Source: a virus
Taxonomy: Duplodnaviria > Heunggongvirae > Uroviricota > Caudoviricetes
Length of the DNA: 14,640 nt
Virus record (IMG/VR): IMGVR_UViG_2630968342_000015
Strand: one strand, 5' to 3'
Each line of letters starts with the position of its first letter. Within the stretch, counting starts at the first letter, position 1. Made by a program: the position numbers and the translations under genes. Positions 3,125 to 14,486 of the stretch are shown in pieces. The notes beneath the pieces are model-generated. The model was not told where the DNA came from. It worked only from the letters and a program-made list of their open reading frames with translations, and ran no database searches.

Positions 3125-3424
3125 ATGAGAACGTATTTATCTGGCTTTACTGCCAGCGGTTATGCACACCCCAAAATTATCCCCGGCGCTATTTATCTGG
3201 ATAAGAACGGTAACAGAGTAACGGTAAAAGAACTGATGTTTGACCGTGTGTATTTTATTCGTGATGGCTATTCATTTCATAGTTCGCTGAACGTGGAGAT
3301 CTTTATTAGCAGATTCCGGCGGGAAATCCCGCTTTCCAGAAATAACCATGTGTCATGTATGGATGTTGATAAAAAACTACAGGAACTGAAAAACATGATT
3401 GCCGCGTGGAGAGAGCAGAAATGA
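3125..3424 (+). CDS. Hypothetical protein, possibly DUF4222-like
   Basis: 99-aa ORF. GAIYLDKNGNRVTVKELMFDRVYFIRDGY resembles small DUF4222 proteins found upstream of primases in enterobacterial islands (recall only). Confidence 0.55.
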   Translation: MRTYLSGFTASGYAHPKIIPGAIYLDKNGNRVTVKELMFDRVYFIRDGYSFHSSLNVEIFISRFRREIPLSRNNHVSCMDVDKKLQELKNMIAAWREQK

Positions 3425-5238
3425 AAAAAGCGCCAAATTTAAAACACCAGCCGCGTGACAAAATGACGGAAGTCATCATTTTTGCGGGTAGTGATGCGTG
3501 GGCACATGCGAAGCAGTGGCAGGAACAGGACGGGCGACTGGCTGGCGATAACGTGCCACCTGTCTGGCTTGGAGAGCAACAACTTGCCGAACTGGACAAC
3601 CTGCAAATCGTACCGGACGGACGCTATCGCGTGCGTCTCTACCAGGCGGGGTTATTGCGTCCGGGGCTTGTTAATACCATCGGGCAGAAACTGGCAGCGG
3701 CAGGTGTCAGGGATGCTGATTATTACCCTGAAGGAATGCACAGCCAGAAACGGGAGAACTGGCGCGAATATCTGGAACGTGAGCGGGGAGAGCTGGCGGA
3801 AAAGAAAAAGGTAGTTGAACTGCCTGTAAAGAAAAAAGAGCGGGTAAAAGACGATAACGCTTCATCACTGGCGCTTAACCAGATGGGAGCAAGTCAACGC
3901 GGCGAAGTTCTCCTGGCACATTATGGCGGTGAACTGGCGATTCATGCTGACTCTGACACTGTTCACTATTACAACGGCGTTGTATGGGAGCCAGTACAGG
4001 ATAAAGAATTACAGCGAGCTATGGCGCAGATTTTCATTGATGCGGAGATCAGCTATTCGCAGAACGCCATTAAATCGGCGGTCGATACCATGAAGTTAAG
4101 TTTGCCTGTAATGGGGAATACAGCCCGTAACCTGATTGGATTCAGTAACGGTGTTTTTGATACCCGGACAGGCGATTTTCGGGAGCATAACAAAAACGAC
4201 TGGTTGTTAATTGCCAGTGAATTACCTTTCAGCCCACCAGCAGAGGGGGAAACGCTGGCAACACATGCGCCGAATTTCTGGAAGTGGTTACGCCGTTCGG
4301 TGGCTGAGAATGACCGCAAGGCGGATCGCGTACTGGCTGCATTATTCATGGTGCTGGCGAACCGGTACGACTGGCAGTTATTCATTGAGGTAACAGGTCC
4401 AGGGGGAAGTGGTAAAAGCGTGATGGCGGAGATTTGCACCATGCTGGCGGGTAAGGCCAACACGGTATCGGCAAGCATGAAGGCGCTGGAAGATGCCAGG
4501 GAACGCGCGTTAGTGGTTGGCTTTTCGCTGATTATCATGCCGGATATGACCCGTTACGCTGGTGATGGCGCAGGAATTAAGGCCATTACAGGCGGTGACA
4601 AGGTGGCAATCGACCCGAAGCATAAAGCCCCCTACTCAACACGCATTCAGGCGGTAGTGTTGGCGGTGAACAATAACGCCATGTCATTCAGTGACCGCAG
4701 CGGGGGGATTTCACGTCGTCGGGTGATATTCAATTTTTCGGAGGTTGTACCGGAAAACGAACGCGACCCCATGCTGGCAGAAAAAATAGAAGGAGAGCTG
4801 GCGGTTGTGATTCGCCACCTGCTTACTCGTTTTTCTGACCAGGACGCAGCTAAACGCCTGCTGTATGAGCAGCAGAAATCAGAAGAAGCTCTGGTGATAA
4901 AACGCGAGGGCGATTCGCTGGTGGACTTCTGCGGCTATCTCATGTCGTCGGTAATGTGTGATGGTCTGTTAGTGGGTAATGCCGAAATTATTCCGTTCAG
5001 TCCGCGCAGGTATCTTTATCACGCCTATCTGGCATATATGAGGGCACACGGATTCGGTAAACCTGTAACACTGACGCGCTTCGGTAAAGATATGCCGGGG
5101 GCAATGGCGGAATATGGCAGGGAGTATATGAAACGGAAAACGAAGCACGGTTTGCGTTCAAACGTGACACTGACGGAGGAATCAGAAGACTGGATGCCAT
5201 CATGTGTATCGGTCACTAATGACGATAGCAAAAATTAA
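3421..5238 (+). CDS. P4-alpha/D5-type primase-helicase (SF3 helicase with a C-terminal origin-binding region)
   Basis: ATG at 3421 (GGAGAG 7 nt upstream) overlaps the previous stop. Walker A GPGGSGKS at 4396-4419 and Walker B-like LIIMPD. Overall resembles the P4-family primase C-terminal domain. An iteron origin lies immediately 3'. Confidence 0.9.
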   Translation: MKKAPNLKHQPRDKMTEVIIFAGSDAWAHAKQWQEQDGRLAGDNVPPVWLGEQQLAELDNLQIVPDGRYRVRLYQAGLLRPGLVNTIGQKLAAAGVRDADYYPEGMHSQKRENWREYLERERGELAEKKKVVELPVKKKERVKDDNASSLALNQMGASQRGEVLLAHYGGELAIHADSDTVHYYNGVVWEPVQDKELQRAMAQIFIDAEISYSQNAIKSAVDTMKLSLPVMGNTARNLIGFSNGVFDTRTGDFREHNKNDWLLIASELPFSPPAEGETLATHAPNFWKWLRRSVAENDRKADRVLAALFMVLANRYDWQLFIEVTGPGGSGKSVMAEICTMLAGKANTVSASMKALEDARERALVVGFSLIIMPDMTRYAGDGAGIKAITGGDKVAIDPKHKAPYSTRIQAVVLAVNNNAMSFSDRSGGISRRRVIFNFSEVVPENERDPMLAEKIEGELAVVIRHLLTRFSDQDAAKRLLYEQQKSEEALVIKREGDSLVDFCGYLMSSVMCDGLLVGNAEIIPFSPRRYLYHAYLAYMRAHGFGKPVTLTRFGKDMPGAMAEYGREYMKRKTKHGLRSNVTLTEESEDWMPSCVSVTNDDSKN

Positions 5239-5250
5239 ACTTATGGAATA

Positions 5251-5475
5251 ACTGTTCACCACTGTTCACCCTGTCATAAATATCTTTTGTATCAGTATGT
5301 TATAGGGTGAACAGTTATTTATGAACTGTTCACCAAACTATTCACTGTTCACCTTTTTGATTGTTTATTGAGCTTCAAGGGTGAACAGTGGTGAATAGTT
5401 GGTGAATAGTTTTTGTGAAACTGTTCACCCCTTAATATTATGAATTAAAAGATAAAATATCAAAAGGTGAACAGG
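5251..5475. repeat. Origin of replication: about 11 copies of the 10-bp iteron ACTGTTCACC in both orientations around AT-rich DNA
   Basis: Plus-oriented copies at 5251, 5261, 5325, 5344 and 5420, with a degenerate one at 5337. Inverted copies (GGTGAACAGT/GGTGAATAGT) at 5306, 5380, 5390, 5401 and 5466. AT-rich stretch at 5430-5465. Confidence 0.8.
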
Positions 5476-6188: not shown

Positions 6189-6461
6189 ATGGTACATGAC
6201 CGCATAGCGGAAGAACTCGAGGCGAAAGGCTTTTACCGGAGGGCGGCGGCGCGATGGGGTGAAGTCATGCTGCTGGTGGAGACAGACAAGGAACGGCATC
6301 AGGTTACGATGCGACGGCTGGAATGTTCCAGGAAGGCACAGAAGCCACCGGAGCCGCCGGATAACTTCGGAGACCTGAGAAAGGCAGTAGATCGCACTTA
6401 TGCTGAAATGGGTATAGATGGTGTAAGCGATGAAATATGGCGTAATTACCCAGACAGCTAA
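6189..6461 (+). CDS. PerC-family-like transcriptional regulator
   Basis: ATG at 6189 after GAGGGGG; 90 aa. The N-terminal AEELEAKGFYRRAAARWGEVM resembles the PerC/Pch family signature (recall only). Confidence 0.5.
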   Translation: MVHDRIAEELEAKGFYRRAAARWGEVMLLVETDKERHQVTMRRLECSRKAQKPPEPPDNFGDLRKAVDRTYAEMGIDGVSDEIWRNYPDS

Positions 6462-6465
6462 TCAA

Positions 6466-6490
6466 CAGCCGGAGAAATCCGGCTTTTTTT
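6466..6490 (+). terminator. Rho-independent terminator
   Basis: AGCCGGA-GAAA-TCCGGCT followed by seven T. Confidence 0.85.
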
Positions 6491-6585
6491 GCACCAGTTG
6501 AAACGGTATGGCGCATTACCGGGTTTTCGTCACGGTCAGGCATAGTTACTATCTGAAACAAACAGACACAACAGAGGAAAAAACA

Positions 6586-6810
6586 ATGCCGATGAAATTT
6601 GATGAGATATTAAAACAGCGTGATAAATACCATGCTGACAACATGGAGACGATGAGCATCAATGATTACCGCGCATTCCTGGAGACGGGCGCACTGATTG
6701 AAAAGGATCAGCATGGTTTTGTGAGATGTGCTCTGTCCGGTGAAATGCTGGCGGTAAATCCTGAACAGATAGATGCATTGATAGAATTTCTGAAAGGGAT
6801 CAGGGACTGA
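6586..6810 (+). CDS. Hypothetical protein (74 aa), moron-like cassette
   Basis: ATG at 6586, 8 nt after AGAGGA. Flanked by two near-identical terminators. Confidence 0.55.
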   Translation: MPMKFDEILKQRDKYHADNMETMSINDYRAFLETGALIEKDQHGFVRCALSGEMLAVNPEQIDALIEFLKGIRD

Positions 6811-6819
6811 GCACGCATA

Positions 6820-6843
6820 CAGCCGGAGCAATCCGGCTTTTTG
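6820..6843 (+). terminator. Rho-independent terminator (near-duplicate of 6466-6490)
   Basis: AGCCGGA-GCAA-TCCGGCT followed by TTTTT. Confidence 0.85.
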
Positions 6844-6861
6844 TCATTTTTTGTAAATTAT

Positions 6862-6896
6862 TTGTTCGTGGTTGTTCCACGTTGTTCACTGACAGG
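6862..6896 (+). repeat. Three TTGTTC motifs on a 10-bp phase upstream of the head operon; candidate activator/Rep-binding site and promoter region
   Basis: TTGTTC at 6862, 6872 and 6882. The 15-mer TTGTTCCACGTTGTT (6872-6886) recurs exactly at 14374-14388. A possible -10 TATTTT lies at 6904-6909. Confidence 0.65.
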
Positions 6897-6964
6897 ATCG
6901 GCATATTTTACCCGAACTGAATCATGAGTATTCTCGCCCGTGGTGCCAGGACGCTGGGGCCACT

Positions 6965-7010
6965 TTCCCGCCTGTTAATGTGCTCGCCAATATTCATTAC
7001 CAGGCGGGAA
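6965..7010 (+). other. Long-range 10-bp inverted repeat in the head-operon leader
   Basis: TTCCCGCCTG (6965-6974) pairs perfectly with CAGGCGGGAA (7001-7010) across a 26-nt loop. Confidence 0.6.
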
Positions 7011-7064
7011 AACGATCGGTGCGATTGCTGATTTCCTTATGAAAAACGGTTGAGTTTTTGCCGC

Positions 7065-10085: not shown

Positions 10086-10420
10086 ACATAGGGCGACTGC
10101 GTGACAGGGTAACGATTCAGACCCTGAAACAGACCAGGGATATAACCGGCGAAATACTCGAAACGTGGGAGGACGGTCACACACTCTGGGCAAGCGTGAA
10201 CATGATCAGCAGCAAGGAGGCCATTTCATCGGGTGCAGAGCTGGCGATTGGTACCGTAAGGATCTGGATACGGTACCGGAAGGACATCAATGCCACCAGC
10301 CGGATAAAGGTCAGTACGGGGCCGCTGGCGGGGCGTGTACTGAATATCATCGGGCAGCCGCTGCCGGATGCCGCCAGGACACGCCTTGAAATTCTTTGTC
10401 GTGAGGGCGCGGAAAAATGA
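10082..10420 (+). CDS. Head-closure / head-tail adaptor protein (SPP1 gp16-like, Phage_H_T_join)
   Basis: ATG at 10082 overlaps the portal stop (ATGA). MNIGRLRDRVTIQ...WEDGHTLWASV...IRYRKDI...ILCREG is the typical family pattern. Confidence 0.8.
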   Translation: MNIGRLRDRVTIQTLKQTRDITGEILETWEDGHTLWASVNMISSKEAISSGAELAIGTVRIWIRYRKDINATSRIKVSTGPLAGRVLNIIGQPLPDAARTRLEILCREGAEK

Positions 10421-11319: not shown

Positions 11320-11441
11320 TGAGGCTGTATGACGGGGTGGGGGGCGTTTTCAGGACAAACCCGACCCCGCCGGGCACCGACCGCCTCCTCAAATTTTTAT
11401 GCACGGGAATTTTTTGAAAAATAATCTGACGAAAAATAAGC
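11320..11441. other. Candidate cos region
   Basis: Lies between HNH and terS, the HK97-like position for cos. G-rich (11331-11346) and C-rich (11361-11389) segments are partly complementary and are followed by AT-rich DNA. Positional inference only. Confidence 0.35.
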
Positions 11442-11798: not shown

Positions 11799-13443
11799 GT
11801 ACGCAGAAGACGTAAAAACGGGCAAAATTCAGGCCTGTAAACGGTTAAAACAGGCCGTTAAACGGTACTTTTCGGACCTTAAAAGCCCCCTTTACACGTT
11901 CGATCGTGAGGTTGTGGATCGGTTTATTGCCTTTTCCAGGGTGTGCCCGCACGTAAAAGGGCCGATGCGTGGCAGACCCATTGAGCTGGAGCCGTGGCAG
12001 CAGTTCGCCTTTGCGTGCATCCTCGGCTTTAAGGTTAAGGCCACCGGACGGCGCAAATATACGAGCGCCTTTATCGAAGTGCCGCGCAAAAATGCTAAAT
12101 CAACGACCGCCGCGATTCTGGCTAACTGGTTTCTGATTATGGAGAACGGTCAGCAGGATATTTACACCGCAGCGGTGAGCCGTGACCAGGCGAGGATCGT
12201 ATTTGATGATGCGCGTCAGATGTGCATTTTATCCCGACCGTTACGCAGGCGGGTGAATATTCAGGCGCATAAGGTGATACACCCGAAAACCAACAGCCTG
12301 TTAAAGCCGCTGGCAGCAAAAGCGGCAACTATCGAGGGCACAAACCCCAGTCTTTCTATCGTGGACGAATACCACCTACACCCCGACAACGGCGTATATT
12401 CTGCGCTTGAACTGGGGATGGGGGCACGTCCCGAAGGGCTGTTATTTGCCATTACCACATCGGGAAGTAACGTCGTTTCAGCCTGTAAGCAGCATTATGA
12501 TTATTGCTGCCAGATCCTGGACGGCGAAGAGGTTAACGAATCGCTTTTTGTGCTGATTTACGAACTGGACGACGAAAACGAGGTTGATGATCCGGAGATG
12601 TGGATAAAGGCGAACCCTAATATCGATGTTTCCGTGGATCGTGAAAAACTGGCCTCAACCATTCAGAAAGCGCGGGGTATTCCGTCGCAATGGGTGGAGA
12701 TGATGACAAAGCGATTTAATATCTGGTGTCAGGGGACTACCCCGTGGATGGGTAATGGTGCATGGGCTGAGTGTGCCGGAACGTTCACGGAGGAAGATTT
12801 ACACGGTCAGGAGTGTTACGCGGGGCTGGACTTATCATCAACCAGCGATATTTCCAGCGTGTGCTATGCCTTTCCGGTCGGTAAAACCATTATGATGATT
12901 TCCCGTCATTATCTGCCGGAGTTCCAGCTACAGAACCCCGCCAATAAAAACCGCGCTGTCTATCGTCAGTGGGCTAAAGCAGGCTGGATACGCACAACGC
13001 CTGGCGACTGCATTGATTACGACCGGATCAGAGATGACATCATGCAGGACGCGGAGAAATTTAATATCAGGCTGGTGGGCTTTGATACGTGGAACGCCAC
13101 GCATCTCAGAACGCAATTACAGGGGGCAGGTTTTGAGGTGGAGCCGTTCCCGCAAACCTACCTCAGATTCAGTCCGGCGGCGAAATCGTTCGAAGTTTTT
13201 GTTAACCGCAGGGTGATTGTGCATCGTGGCGATCCGGTGTTGTCCTGGTCGATGAGTAACGTCGTGATGCAGAGTGACGCGAACGCCAATATCAAGCCGA
13301 ACAAGAAAAAATCACCGAACAAGATAGACCCGAGCGTGGCGGCGCTGATGGCGTTTGGTACATTCCAGGCAGAGCATGAGGATTTTGCTTTTGATATAAG
13401 CGACAGCCACCGCCAGAAACTGGAAGAATTTAGCGGGGTGTAA
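11782..13443 (+). CDS. terL: Terminase large subunit (Terminase_1 family)
   Basis: 553 aa. TTG start with GAGGA 5 nt upstream; no ATG or GTG is available between the upstream in-frame stop and 11782. Walker A-like VPRKNAKST and Walker B-like LSIVDEYH. Confidence 0.9.
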   Translation: MTAWNKYAEDVKTGKIQACKRLKQAVKRYFSDLKSPLYTFDREVVDRFIAFSRVCPHVKGPMRGRPIELEPWQQFAFACILGFKVKATGRRKYTSAFIEVPRKNAKSTTAAILANWFLIMENGQQDIYTAAVSRDQARIVFDDARQMCILSRPLRRRVNIQAHKVIHPKTNSLLKPLAAKAATIEGTNPSLSIVDEYHLHPDNGVYSALELGMGARPEGLLFAITTSGSNVVSACKQHYDYCCQILDGEEVNESLFVLIYELDDENEVDDPEMWIKANPNIDVSVDREKLASTIQKARGIPSQWVEMMTKRFNIWCQGTTPWMGNGAWAECAGTFTEEDLHGQECYAGLDLSSTSDISSVCYAFPVGKTIMMISRHYLPEFQLQNPANKNRAVYRQWAKAGWIRTTPGDCIDYDRIRDDIMQDAEKFNIRLVGFDTWNATHLRTQLQGAGFEVEPFPQTYLRFSPAAKSFEVFVNRRVIVHRGDPVLSWSMSNVVMQSDANANIKPNKKKSPNKIDPSVAALMAFGTFQAEHEDFAFDISDSHRQKLEEFSGV

Positions 13444-13456
13444 TGAGGTCAGCAGC

Positions 13457-13738
13457 ATGACAGAAGCCGAAATAACGGGATTAATCCGCCGCGTTGCCGG
13501 AATCAGCCAGCAGGCTGACGAACAGGCCACGCAGCCGGACAGCGTGACAGCCGAAAACTATGCGCGTGTTGTTGCTGAGGTGATGCGCCGTGATGGTATA
13601 GAACTTAATGGCGTGGATATGCGCAACATACGAACCAGAGTTCTTGAGTTGCTGGCCTACCGTCGCCGCGTGGAGATGTATCGGGAGAAGGAGAAAATAA
13701 CGTACCACTGGAAGAAGCCGGAGCGGTTGCGGCGGTAA
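13457..13738 (+). CDS. Hypothetical protein (93 aa), last gene of the packaging operon
   Basis: GAGGT 7 nt upstream of the ATG. Protein-like composition; no family recognised. Confidence 0.6.
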   Translation: MTEAEITGLIRRVAGISQQADEQATQPDSVTAENYARVVAEVMRRDGIELNGVDMRNIRTRVLELLAYRRRVEMYREKEKITYHWKKPERLRR

Positions 13739-14031
13739 CTGGTTGATATTCCCGACGGACCAAAAATGGGTGGCTACATCCCTCGCTTCTGAGGACTGTT
13801 AACAAGCTGCCTGAAAGACAGTCACAAACTACGAAATTTTCGCAGTTTAATTAATGATCAGCTTAATCGCTAACCCGCTGATATTTTCGGAAACCTCAAT
13901 TTGAGGAAGTCGGCGCGGTAACTCGCTGAACTTTAAGCAAAGTGCAAAATTGCGCTTGCTGAATAATCATTATGATTACGCAGATGATTAAGGAATGACC
14001 GAAGGCGGAAATTCGCCTGTGGTTAATGGGG

Positions 14032-14051
14032 GAGTTGCAGATCTGCAACTC
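14032..14051. repeat. 20-bp perfect palindrome GAGTTGCAGATCTGCAACTC
   Basis: Read directly; the sequence equals its own reverse complement. Confidence 0.9.
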
Positions 14052-14071
14052 GACCATGAAACTACGGAAAC

Positions 14072-14142
14072 TACCCGTAGTTTGGGTAGTAAGAGTAACA
14101 CCCAGATTTTGGGTCTTACTCGTGATACCCAAATTTGGGGTA
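14072..14142. repeat. Three 17-bp palindromic sites (T)ACCC-N7-GGGT(A) with centres exactly 27 bp apart; operator-like or tandem RNA hairpins
   Basis: TACCCgtagtttGGGTA 14072-14088, cACCCagattttGGGTc 14099-14115, TACCCaaatttgGGGTA 14126-14142. Centres at 14080, 14107 and 14134. Confidence 0.75.
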
Positions 14143-14363
14143 TCAGTGGCAACCATAACGACTTTCGTTACGGTTGATGCTTTTACCCCATTGGGGGAAA
14201 GGTATTACGATAATCATAACACCTACCGAACAGGTAAAGCCCACCAGCCTGATTAACGTTTAACCGGAAAAAAATTCCGGTAGGTGGGGATCCCCATATC
14301 GACATTAACGCCCCTCATGAATTGGTGCGCTTCCCCCTGGAAAGATGATCCGCCTGTATATTT

Positions 14364-14407: not shown

Positions 14408-14430
14408 GGTGTAGTCACTGGTGTAGTCAT
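14408..14430 (+). repeat. Tandem direct repeat GGTGTAGTCA x2 (12-bp period); candidate integrase arm-type sites
   Basis: Copies at 14408-14417 and 14420-14429, about 70-90 bp from the presumed junction. Confidence 0.4.
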
Positions 14431-14473: not shown

Positions 14474-14486
14474 AATCAACGTGTTA
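14474..14486 (+). promoter_or_regulatory. IHF consensus match (WATCAANNNNTTR) with an A/T-rich upstream tract
   Basis: AATCAACGTGTTA matches every consensus position. It is preceded by AAAATTATTTAATTAA and lies about 15-25 bp from the presumed junction. Confidence 0.45.

Follow-up and report, generated by a model that had tools for sequence, protein, structure and literature searches.

Three evenly spaced palindromes in the non-coding tail of an Escherichia coli phage-inducible chromosomal island and their similarity to variable segments of phage regulator genes

The island and its non-coding tail

The window analyzed here, that is, the entire 14,640-nucleotide stretch of the IMG/VR virus record IMGVR_UViG_2630968342_000015 (Caudoviricetes), contains near its right end three evenly spaced 17-bp palindromes (dyads) embedded in a mosaic non-coding tract. 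Judging by gene content, the window is a capsid-forming phage-inducible chromosomal island (PICI) of the EcCIEDL933 kind inserted in tqsA; DNA identical to the window is present in Escherichia coli PCN033 and in many O157, O55 and O26 strains. The RefSeq annotation of PCN033 lists, in the first part of the island, an integrase, an AlpA-type helix-turn-helix protein, Icd-like genes, primase, SSB and PerC and, in the second part, HK97-type capsid, protease, portal, head-closure and connector genes, HNH, a P27-family TerS, TerL and a hypothetical protein of 93 amino acids (aa). Every gene of the island is encoded on the plus strand, and the annotation includes no cI/Cro-type repressor, as a first-pass annotation of the window, made from the sequence alone, had already noted. 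The 93-aa gene is followed by about 740 bp without annotation and then by the split tqsA, and the three dyads lie inside this tail. EcCIEDL933 is the functional, experimentally mobilized prototype of these islands, which is packaged and transferred, and its TerS is the identical protein (WP_000113645.1). The features of the tail that are considered first are (positions are those of the window):

13457-13738, plus strand: orf93, encoding the 93-aa protein; phrog_1561, no Pfam match; always upstream of the tract and present in both PICI types described below
13739-14330, no strand assigned: mosaic non-coding tract between orf93 and the attR-proximal arm, made of shuffled cassettes that differ between islands
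14027-14149, plus strand: portable module consisting of a 20-bp palindrome and the three sites, also present by itself, between different flanking sequences, in numerous E. coli genomes (90-94% identity)
14072-14088, no strand assigned: site 1, TACCCGTAGTTTGGGTA, the core of the palindrome ACTACCC-N7-GGGTAGT (14070-14090)
14099-14115, no strand assigned: site 2, cACCCAGATTTTGGGTc, the core of the palindrome GAGTAAC-ACCCA-GATTT-TGGGT-CTTACTC (14093-14121)
14126-14142, no strand assigned: site 3, TACCCAAATTTGGGGTA, the core of the palindrome TGATACCC-N7-GGGTATCA (14123-14145)

The three sites are centred at 14080, 14107 and 14134, so that the spacing is 27/27 bp. The first-pass annotation had described three palindromes with identical half-sites; the centres, the 27-bp spacing and the 7-bp spacer hold, but TACCC-N7-GGGTA is found in sites 1 and 3 only, whereas the middle site reads cACCC-N7-GGGTc, and the core common to all three is ACCC-N7-GGGT. 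The TACCC-N7-GGGTA motif is expected 0.26 times per window, with three or more copies in 0 of 200 shuffled sequences, and three ACCC-N7-GGGT sites within 100 bp were obtained in 0 of 3000 shuffles; the three-dyad pattern is far beyond chance. A fourth exact TACCC-N7-GGGTA (12738-12754, inside terL) is isolated, has a G+C-rich centre and is probably a chance occurrence. Comparison of the 27-bp units by hand shows 19 of 27 identical positions between units 2 and 3, and 15 of 27 between units 1 and 2; Tandem Repeats Finder, which looks for head-to-tail copies that are at least about 70% alike, reported no tandem repeat at score 30. The three sites represent one palindromic cassette, repeated in tandem every 27 bp in three diverged copies. 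The 71 bp that span all three also form a 79% dyad as a whole.

The tract contains about 15 palindromes, and the sites are three of these. The predicted folding of the tract is extreme on both strands (z = -9.6 for the plus strand and -9.3 for the minus strand), and positions 13930-14300 are a continuous string of hairpin-forming palindromes. The DNA around the sites had been called free of open reading frames (ORFs). Mechanically called ORFs of 54-86 aa do overlap the sites, although their starts and stops are not conserved among the variants of the module; these include:

13995-14177, plus strand: ORF of 60 aa with a 9-residue repeat, xTQxLGxxx
14026-14256, plus strand: ORF
13896-14156, minus strand: ORF of 86 aa

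Distribution and variation of the three-site module

We compared 39 distinct tracts from IMG/VR and E. coli. The module is present in 14 of these, and the 27/27 spacing is intact in 13 of the 14, namely those that keep ACCC-N7-GGG. The first-pass annotation had proposed that absence of the motif and spacing from homologous islands would speak against a function; on that count, the element is not a conserved, essential cis site, although wherever the module occurs its spacing is nearly invariant. The segment 14148-14300, in turn, is found without the module in other genomes, EDL933 included. The PICIs that carry the module belong to two types with different packaging systems, capsid-forming and lambda-type (capsid, decoration protein and a TerS-like gene). 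In two of the lambda-type islands, L003 and L004, the module accompanies a different TerS-like gene and is located upstream of an SfIV/phiP27-like cosN, on the cosQ side. In the L003 tract, some 75 bp downstream of the module, there is a cos-like segment (6198-6280, GGGAGGGGCGGGGCAAATCTC...) that shares 80-94% identity with genome ends or annotated cos sites in phages SfIV, phiP27 and 118970_sal3.

A metagenome scan anchored outside the three sites, together with scans of viral contigs, yielded 44 distinct variants, 38 of which could be aligned at full length. Among the 38 there are no indels between the three sites, and the indels among variants are multiples of 3. The A-T pair of the middle site (72-86) that makes GGGT is specific to the window's own allele (1/38), the other 37 variants reading GGGG. 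Recombinant variants end after site 1, after site 2 or before site 1. In site 3, the arms are kept and the A/T-rich centre is hypervariable, with two-sided changes T-A/C-G and A-T/C-G for which intermediates were found.

Two observations on the occurrence of the module can be added. In some islands (L107, L204, L210, L233 and L265), the three-site module is present twice, at a distance of 434-436 bp, and the cassette that follows differs between the two copies. A 10,790-bp E. coli plasmid record, NZ_CP148328.1, has the module at 10299-10418 (93% identity); this 'plasmid' could be a PICI that was excised in circular form and entered in the database under that label.

Homologous palindromes within phage regulator genes

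The first-pass annotation had suggested a search for the motif in related islands and helper phages. An IMG/VR scan for two nearby TACCC-N7-GGGTA sites identified a lambdoid prophage contig (L295) in which homologues of sites 3 and 1 are located inside the gene for a 280-aa KilA-N-domain protein, between rusA and Q; this gene reads ACC CAA AAT CTG GGT as T-Q-N-L-G. A standard BLAST search of the tract against 50,697 phage genomes (E 1e-5) produced no match, and the similarity to phage genes becomes visible only with short-match settings and after the motif scan. A blastn-short comparison of 13739-14330 with 21.4 kb of phage loci then gave 12 matches with raw scores of at least 14 (maximum 26), all in variable segments of KilA-N, roi or ant genes, compared with a mean of 0.11 and a maximum of 2 matches in 200 dinucleotide-shuffled controls. 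Matches to an endolysin region of Stx phages and a few exact 15-mers were at chance level.

Examination of nine alleles of this KilA-N gene, which in lambdoid phages is located between rusA and Q (mEp460, L295, PhiR55_1, Stx2c phage, Kati, Salmonella 118970_sal3, Yersinia YeP2, Shigella VIT_AJPSC and Morganella IME1369_02) showed that, in all nine, conserved flanks surround a loop that is hypervariable. Six alleles have a strongly palindromic loop, with 9 or more matched arm positions; the YeP2 palindrome is weaker (8 of 9), and the Stx2c and sal3 loops have only a shorter, GGAATTCC-centred dyad. Five strong palindromes are found in 0.96 kb of KilA-N loops versus none in the remaining 8.8 kb of the same loci. 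Every palindrome between 13998 and 14176 has a counterpart in antirepressor-like genes of lambdoid phages (KilA-N, Ant), and those listed here correspond to alternative versions of the KilA-N loop:

Site 1: mEp460/L295 KilA-N segment GAAACTACCCAAAATTTGGGTAGTAA, 23/26 nt
Site 2: mEp460 KilA-N unit, reverse complement, 17/17 nt; PhiR55_1 AACACCCAGAATTTGGGT, 17/18
Site 3: homologous to L295/mEp460 KilA-N CGATACCCAAAATCTGGGTATCGG
14032-14051, no strand assigned: perfect 20-bp palindrome GAGTTGCAGATCTGCAACTC with GATC at the centre; Kati KilA-N segment encoding ELQICNS, 20/21 nt, also the YeP2 and Morganella IME1369_02 alleles
14059-14083, no strand assigned: alternative palindrome AAACTACGG-N7-CCGTAGTTT, overlapping site 1; homologous to the Shigella phage VIT_AJPSC KilA-N segment AAACTACGGGAGATTCCCGTAGT
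13998-14033, no strand assigned: cassette ACCGAAGGCGGAAATTCGCC followed by CCTGTGGTTAATGGGGGA, the window copy being more diverged than the PICI variant ACCGAGGGCGGAATTCCGCCT
The GAGGGCGGAATTCCGCC cassette, with the PICI variant ACCGAGGGCGGAATTCCGCCT: KilA-N loop (TEGGIPP) of the Stx2c phage, 20/21 nt, and of 118970_sal3, 17/17 nt

The stretch 14059-14094, which includes the alternative palindrome, contains four heptads of the AAACTAC type (the fourth diverged) at 9-bp spacing, two direct and then two inverted. The possibility that the tract derives from a single decayed KilA-N gene was rejected: several alleles of the same loop stand in tandem, and a tblastn search of the tracts for remains of the conserved KilA-N domain was negative.

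Two further palindromes resemble segments of antirepressor genes:

14150-14176, no strand assigned: palindrome CAACCATAACGA-CTT-TCGTTACGGTTG, resembling the ant palindrome of 933W/Stx phages
13826-13848, no strand assigned: palindrome AAACTACGAA-ATT-TTCGCAGTTT, matched at 25/26 nt (E = 0.07) by an 'antirepressor KilAC domain' gene in Hafnia phage Pocitis76

The former matches the palindrome with 11-bp arms in ant of 933W/Stx phages at about 25 of 29 nt, in antisense orientation, which taken alone is a weak match (E = 7); the variant of this palindrome in the L022 tract matches at 26/29. The ant palindrome (902-928 in L332; 26998-27029 of 933W in AF125520.1) lies in the region encoding STITEIVMVA and is the sole strong palindrome in that 1.8-kb locus.

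Another line of evidence comes from the upstream part of the tract (13736-13960), where three repeat units share up to 96% identity with the part of roi/Rha genes that codes for the wing:

13736-13773, minus strand: repeat unit 1, integration host factor (IHF) consensus TATCAACCAGTTA (13736-13748) beside an imperfect palindrome; the orf93 stop codon is inside the unit
13871-13913, minus strand: repeat unit 2, IHF consensus TATCAGCGGGTTA (13871-13883) and palindrome CCTCAATTTGAGG (13894-13906)
13919-13960, minus strand: repeat unit 3, degenerate IHF motif and palindrome AGCAAAGTGCA-AAAT-TGCGCTTGCT

Unit 2 is identical at 32 of 35 nt (E = 5e-4), in antisense orientation, to roi/antirepressor genes of HK620, HK75, HK633, Stx2-86, P27 and Gally, and repeat-unit variants in other islands match other alleles, including those of JLK-2012 roi (E = 1e-7, with 91% identity across 46 nt), VT2-Sakai roi and, in Klebsiella, a gene of the Rha family. 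The exact IHF consensus, WATCARNNNNTTR, has 48 copies on the minus strand but a single one on the plus strand across the 18.8 kb of the 39 tracts, compared to the expectation of 0.57 per strand, and in the listed units nearly every IHF consensus is immediately preceded by a palindrome, the sequence of which varies. HK620 roi and HK022 roi likewise pair a palindrome with an IHF consensus, at coding position 153. The Roi-type architecture, defined as a short dyad followed by WATCARNNNNTTR within about 10 bp, is present in repeat units 1 and 2 and in 48 units across the tracts. The segment of HK620-type roi that includes the palindrome and the IHF consensus is not significantly less polymorphic than the rest (3/49 versus 101/723 columns); an IMG/VR scan for further roi alleles returned only copies that were 98-100% identical.

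Possible functions of the tract

Because of the homology and the architecture described above, we infer that the palindromes are protein-binding sites. In the phages, they would be cis-acting sites inside the regulator's own gene, as reported for HK022 Roi and IHF; the lambda origin inside gene O is a second precedent for sites located within their own gene. The tract lines up, in their different allelic forms, intragenic palindromes of this kind from KilA-N and Ant genes, and the island would carry a multi-specificity array for the KilA-N/Roi-type proteins of lambdoid phages that infect the cell or reside in it as well. Acting at the level of DNA, this array would serve either as a decoy, by titration or interference, or as a sensor beside the attR arm. 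Thus, tentatively and with somewhat less than even confidence, we interpret the tract as an accessory, DNA-level array of putative binding sites for phage KilA-N/Roi-type proteins that might serve as a decoy or a sensor. The first-pass annotation had speculated that a helper-phage protein could be the cognate binder; the homology to palindromes in KilA-N, Roi and Ant-type genes of lambdoid phages supports the connection to such a protein, and the decoy or sensor role would be an additional, conditional step. A more far-reaching version, which we consider rather doubtful, would make the tract a satellite 'library' of hypervariable cis-sites from KilA-N, Roi/Rha and Ant genes, a counter-phage or helper-sensing device consisting of nucleic acid only that titrates or senses the regulators of many phages, with several allelic specificities side by side and with the hypervariability of these phage gene segments being the phage side of an arms race.

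Several observations weigh against the binding-site array. The module is dispensable, being absent from 25 of the 39 tracts and from EcCIEDL933. None of the three KilA-N-type sites is adjoined by an IHF consensus, and the binding of HK022 Roi and IHF within the roi coding sequence is reportedly a result of Clerget and Boccard (1996); the papers found establish no more than that Roi binds DNA and is linked to lytic growth that depends on IHF. The flanks of the palindromes are also similar to the phage genes, as would result from recent transfer rather than from binding-site function alone. Covariation, which the first-pass annotation had suggested comparing with half-site conservation, is limited to the two two-sided changes in site 3; the observed number of pairs changed on both sides was reached in 167 of 500 shuffles, these statistics being weak because the module varies little (mean column identity 89%), and two-sided changes of this kind could arise unselected via quasipalindrome template switching. 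Finally, in the 28-41.5 kb region of HK106, the helper of EcCIEDL933, there is no roi, KilA-N or ant gene and there are only chance matches to the tract; therefore the array cannot be a general induction sensor. It would be required neither for packaging nor for induction by the helper HK106.

As the main rival, it is possible, if on balance unlikely, that the tract is recombination debris or a set of selfish palindromic cassettes. Short, hairpin-prone pieces of phage antirepressor-like genes would have been caught and reshuffled in an accessory hotspot of the island, by recombination that palindromes stimulate or that uses short homologies, and would not be under selection, with the palindromy kept by template switching. 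Such an origin would account for the extensive mosaicism of the cassettes between islands, with breakpoints even within the module, for the dispensability of the latter, for the phage homology of the flanks outside the dyads, for the weak covariation and the random proportions of stem mismatches, and for the insertion of accessory genes at the same place elsewhere, such as the abortive infection (Abi) gene in L004. It would not lead one to expect that only palindromic segments of three related regulator families were sampled, with no remnants of conserved domains, that 48 exact IHF consensus sites have one orientation, that three alleles of one cassette remain in strict 27-bp register in 13 tracts, or that the island palindromes are at least as perfect as those in the phage genes (GAGGGCGGAATTCCGCC, for example). 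A function at the RNA level appears improbable. The tract would then be a 3' extension of the rightward operon, with stabilizing or terminating hairpins, or an antisense RNA with several targets, namely the mRNAs of roi, ant and KilA-N genes of phages; the extreme predicted folding and the plus-strand orientation of all island genes are compatible with this possibility, as is the fact that the repeat units and 14150-14176, read on the plus strand, are antisense to roi/ant over 29-46 nt (86-96% identity), and palindromic segments can pair with targets in either orientation. A small RNA (sRNA) of Vibrio PLE satellites (elements resembling phage-inducible chromosomal islands) that regulates helper-phage genes is known (bioRxiv 10.1101/2022.04.08.487710). 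However, the minus strand folds equally well, the KilA-N-type cassette flanks, including those of the three sites, are in the sense orientation, and the loop centres are palindromic (AAATTT, AGATCT), which is needless for hairpin loops. Among the single mismatches in the stems of all tract hairpins, 43 are G.T, 45 are A.C and 149 are of other kinds; G.T and A.C are found at the random ratio, and therefore no strand-specific RNA pairing signature is visible. The three dyads, which had been envisaged as tandem hairpins in RNA, look more like sites at the DNA level. No promoter-like site beyond chance was detected in 13739-14344; the one weak match to an intrinsic terminator (minus strand, 14114-14100) is within chance expectation; tRNA and tmRNA scans were negative; and the Rfam 15 search gave no hit at the gathering threshold and only chance-level matches at E up to 10.

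The remaining alternatives concern the three sites themselves. A tripartite operator of the lambdoid OR/OL kind for a cI/Cro-like repressor of the island or the helper, one of the first-pass suggestions, is brought to mind by three 17-bp dyads with a common ACCC/GGGT core, and such dyads can be operators elsewhere: in the unrelated viral contig L286 (2180-2227), two TACCCC-N5-GGGGTA dyads flank TTGACA/TATAAT. Nevertheless, given that no promoter overlaps the sites, that the island encodes no repressor, that the middle half-site is found in 1 of 38 variants, that recombination separates the sites, leaving one or two of them, and that the 27-bp spacing would place the dyads on different helical faces, we consider this reading highly improbable. 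The suggested TerS recognition array, cosB-like or pac-like, for the P27-family TerS of the island fares still worse and is hardly credible. The sites are 330 bp downstream of the terS-terL-orf93 block, and lambda cosB is an array of three R sites, but the module coexists with unrelated packaging modules, in lambda-type PICIs with a different TerS-like gene upstream of cosN. EcCIEDL933 encodes the identical TerS, lacks the module and is still packaged; therefore, the sites are neither a cognate TerS array nor an essential cis element. In HNH-dependent cos phages, cos lies between hnh and terS, which in the window corresponds to the gap 11320-11441 and also counts against a TerS array at the sites. 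A small protein-coding gene, that is, the 60-aa ORF on the plus strand or the 86-aa ORF on the minus strand, would fit the 27-bp period (9 codons), the translation of the homologous phage DNA as T-Q-N-L-G and the indels in multiples of 3. Conversely, variants of the L003 type have no start codon and an in-frame TGA just upstream, those of the L204a and L004 types have stops in the centre of site 3, the 20-bp palindrome is in a different plus-strand frame from the three sites, and conservation extends to the arms but not to the encoded peptide, which has no Pfam or PHROG match; such a gene is very unlikely indeed.

Comparison with known systems

A close parallel to the proposed binding-site array is the reported autogenous site of HK022 Roi. 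In the repeat units, the arrangement of the roi segment recurs, with an IHF consensus after a short palindrome, and the three sites correspond to analogous intragenic palindromes of another antirepressor-like family, KilA-N; in contrast to HK022, the island sites are outside genes, come in several allelic versions, are putative and belong to a satellite that has no Roi or KilA-N gene. The iterons of the lambda origin are dyad-containing cis-sites in gene O, in a tolerant part of the gene for their own binding protein, and are type-specific among lambdoid phages. They resemble the phage palindromes considered here in that cis-sites are embedded in coding DNA, and a strong palindrome is found inside HK022 gene O as well, whereas the tract sites are copies away from their gene, and the origin of the island is expected 3' of the primase gene. 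The cosB region of lambda (R3, R2, R1), which contains the IHF site I1, also combines three short sites with IHF in the service of a winged-helix protein; the island sites differ in that they fail to show linkage to TerS and to cosN. The lambdoid OR/OL are similar in scale, with three 17-bp dyads, but are spaced by 23-24 bp rather than 27 bp, and the island sites have no promoter, no repressor and no conservation of the half-sites.

Short palindromic cassettes that occur both in frame within ORFs and in non-coding mosaics are familiar from the palindromic repeats within genes of Rickettsia (Rickettsia palindromic elements, RPEs) and from the mosaic extragenic palindromes of E. coli (bacterial interspersed mosaic elements, BIMEs, and repetitive extragenic palindromic, REP, sequences). 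Unlike these genome-dispersed elements, the island cassettes are confined to PICI tracts and to one position in phage regulator genes. The sRNA of PLE directed against ICP1 (bioRxiv 10.1101/2022.04.08.487710) shares with the tract the character of a satellite non-coding element aimed at helper-phage genes; it is a defined sRNA, whereas the tract shows no strand signature.

A literature search that included literal sequences found neither the tract nor the intragenic palindromes described. Decoys and arrays of binding sites are in themselves known kinds of elements; what would be new is a multi-allelic satellite array that mirrors cis-sites inside phage regulator genes. According to a 2018 paper in ISME J, the activator of Gram-negative PICIs is unidentified. 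Should the proposed reading be correct, phage regulators would bind palindromes within their own genes, satellites would carry multi-allelic arrays of those sites, and two poorly understood problems, namely sensing or interference by Gram-negative PICIs and the function of Roi, KilA-N and Ant in lambdoid and Stx phages, would be joined. Even if the tract is debris, the hypervariable loop of the regulator genes is a strong palindrome in most of the alleles examined, and satellites collect exactly those segments, which informs satellite-phage recombination; both observations appear to be unreported.

Additional features of the islands and related arrays

In the published layout of PICI replication origins, the iterons flank an A/T-rich stretch next to rep, immediately 3' of the primase gene (PMC6092414). 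The three-site tract was considered as the origin of the island and rejected on position, being 8.5 kb from the primase gene (3406-5238). Just 3' of that gene, where the PICI origin is expected, there are an IHF consensus (5290-5302) and a 27-bp palindrome (5402-5428). At the opposite end of the island, two direct repeats of GGTGTAGTCA 12 bp apart (14408-14417 and 14420-14429) and the IHF consensus AATCAACGTGTTA (14474-14486, at the tqsA junction) are kept in most islands; these are probably arm-type integrase sites and the attR IHF site, respectively. The AlphaFold model of the orf93 product consists of three helices and is of low confidence (pLDDT 59). The homologues of this protein are close relatives from E. 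coli and Shigella only, all without annotation, and a search of genome contigs with orf93 identified one locus only.

Arrays of two to four TACCC-(A/T-rich)7-GGGTA dyads were also observed in unrelated viral contigs, mostly low-GC environmental ones (L283, L285, L288, L291, L297, L301, L315 and about 20 related loci). Among the tracts, those of L016, L022 and L086 contain a 22-bp palindrome, CGATATGGGGATCCCCATATCG, with GATC at the centre, of which the window (14286-14301) retains the right half only. The L036, L042, L059 and L074 tracts have an alternative cassette with four GTGAC motifs at a 10-bp phase, for example, in the first 60 nt past orf93 in L074; this cassette, which the window lacks, is followed by a hairpin and a T run (GACGTGGCCAACGTCATTTTTT) that make a good plus-strand terminator. 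In L004, the tract is directly followed by a gene of an abortive-infection family on the opposite strand (6275-7036), and the island as a whole sits within the structural genes of a prophage, that is, it is a helper-embedded satellite.

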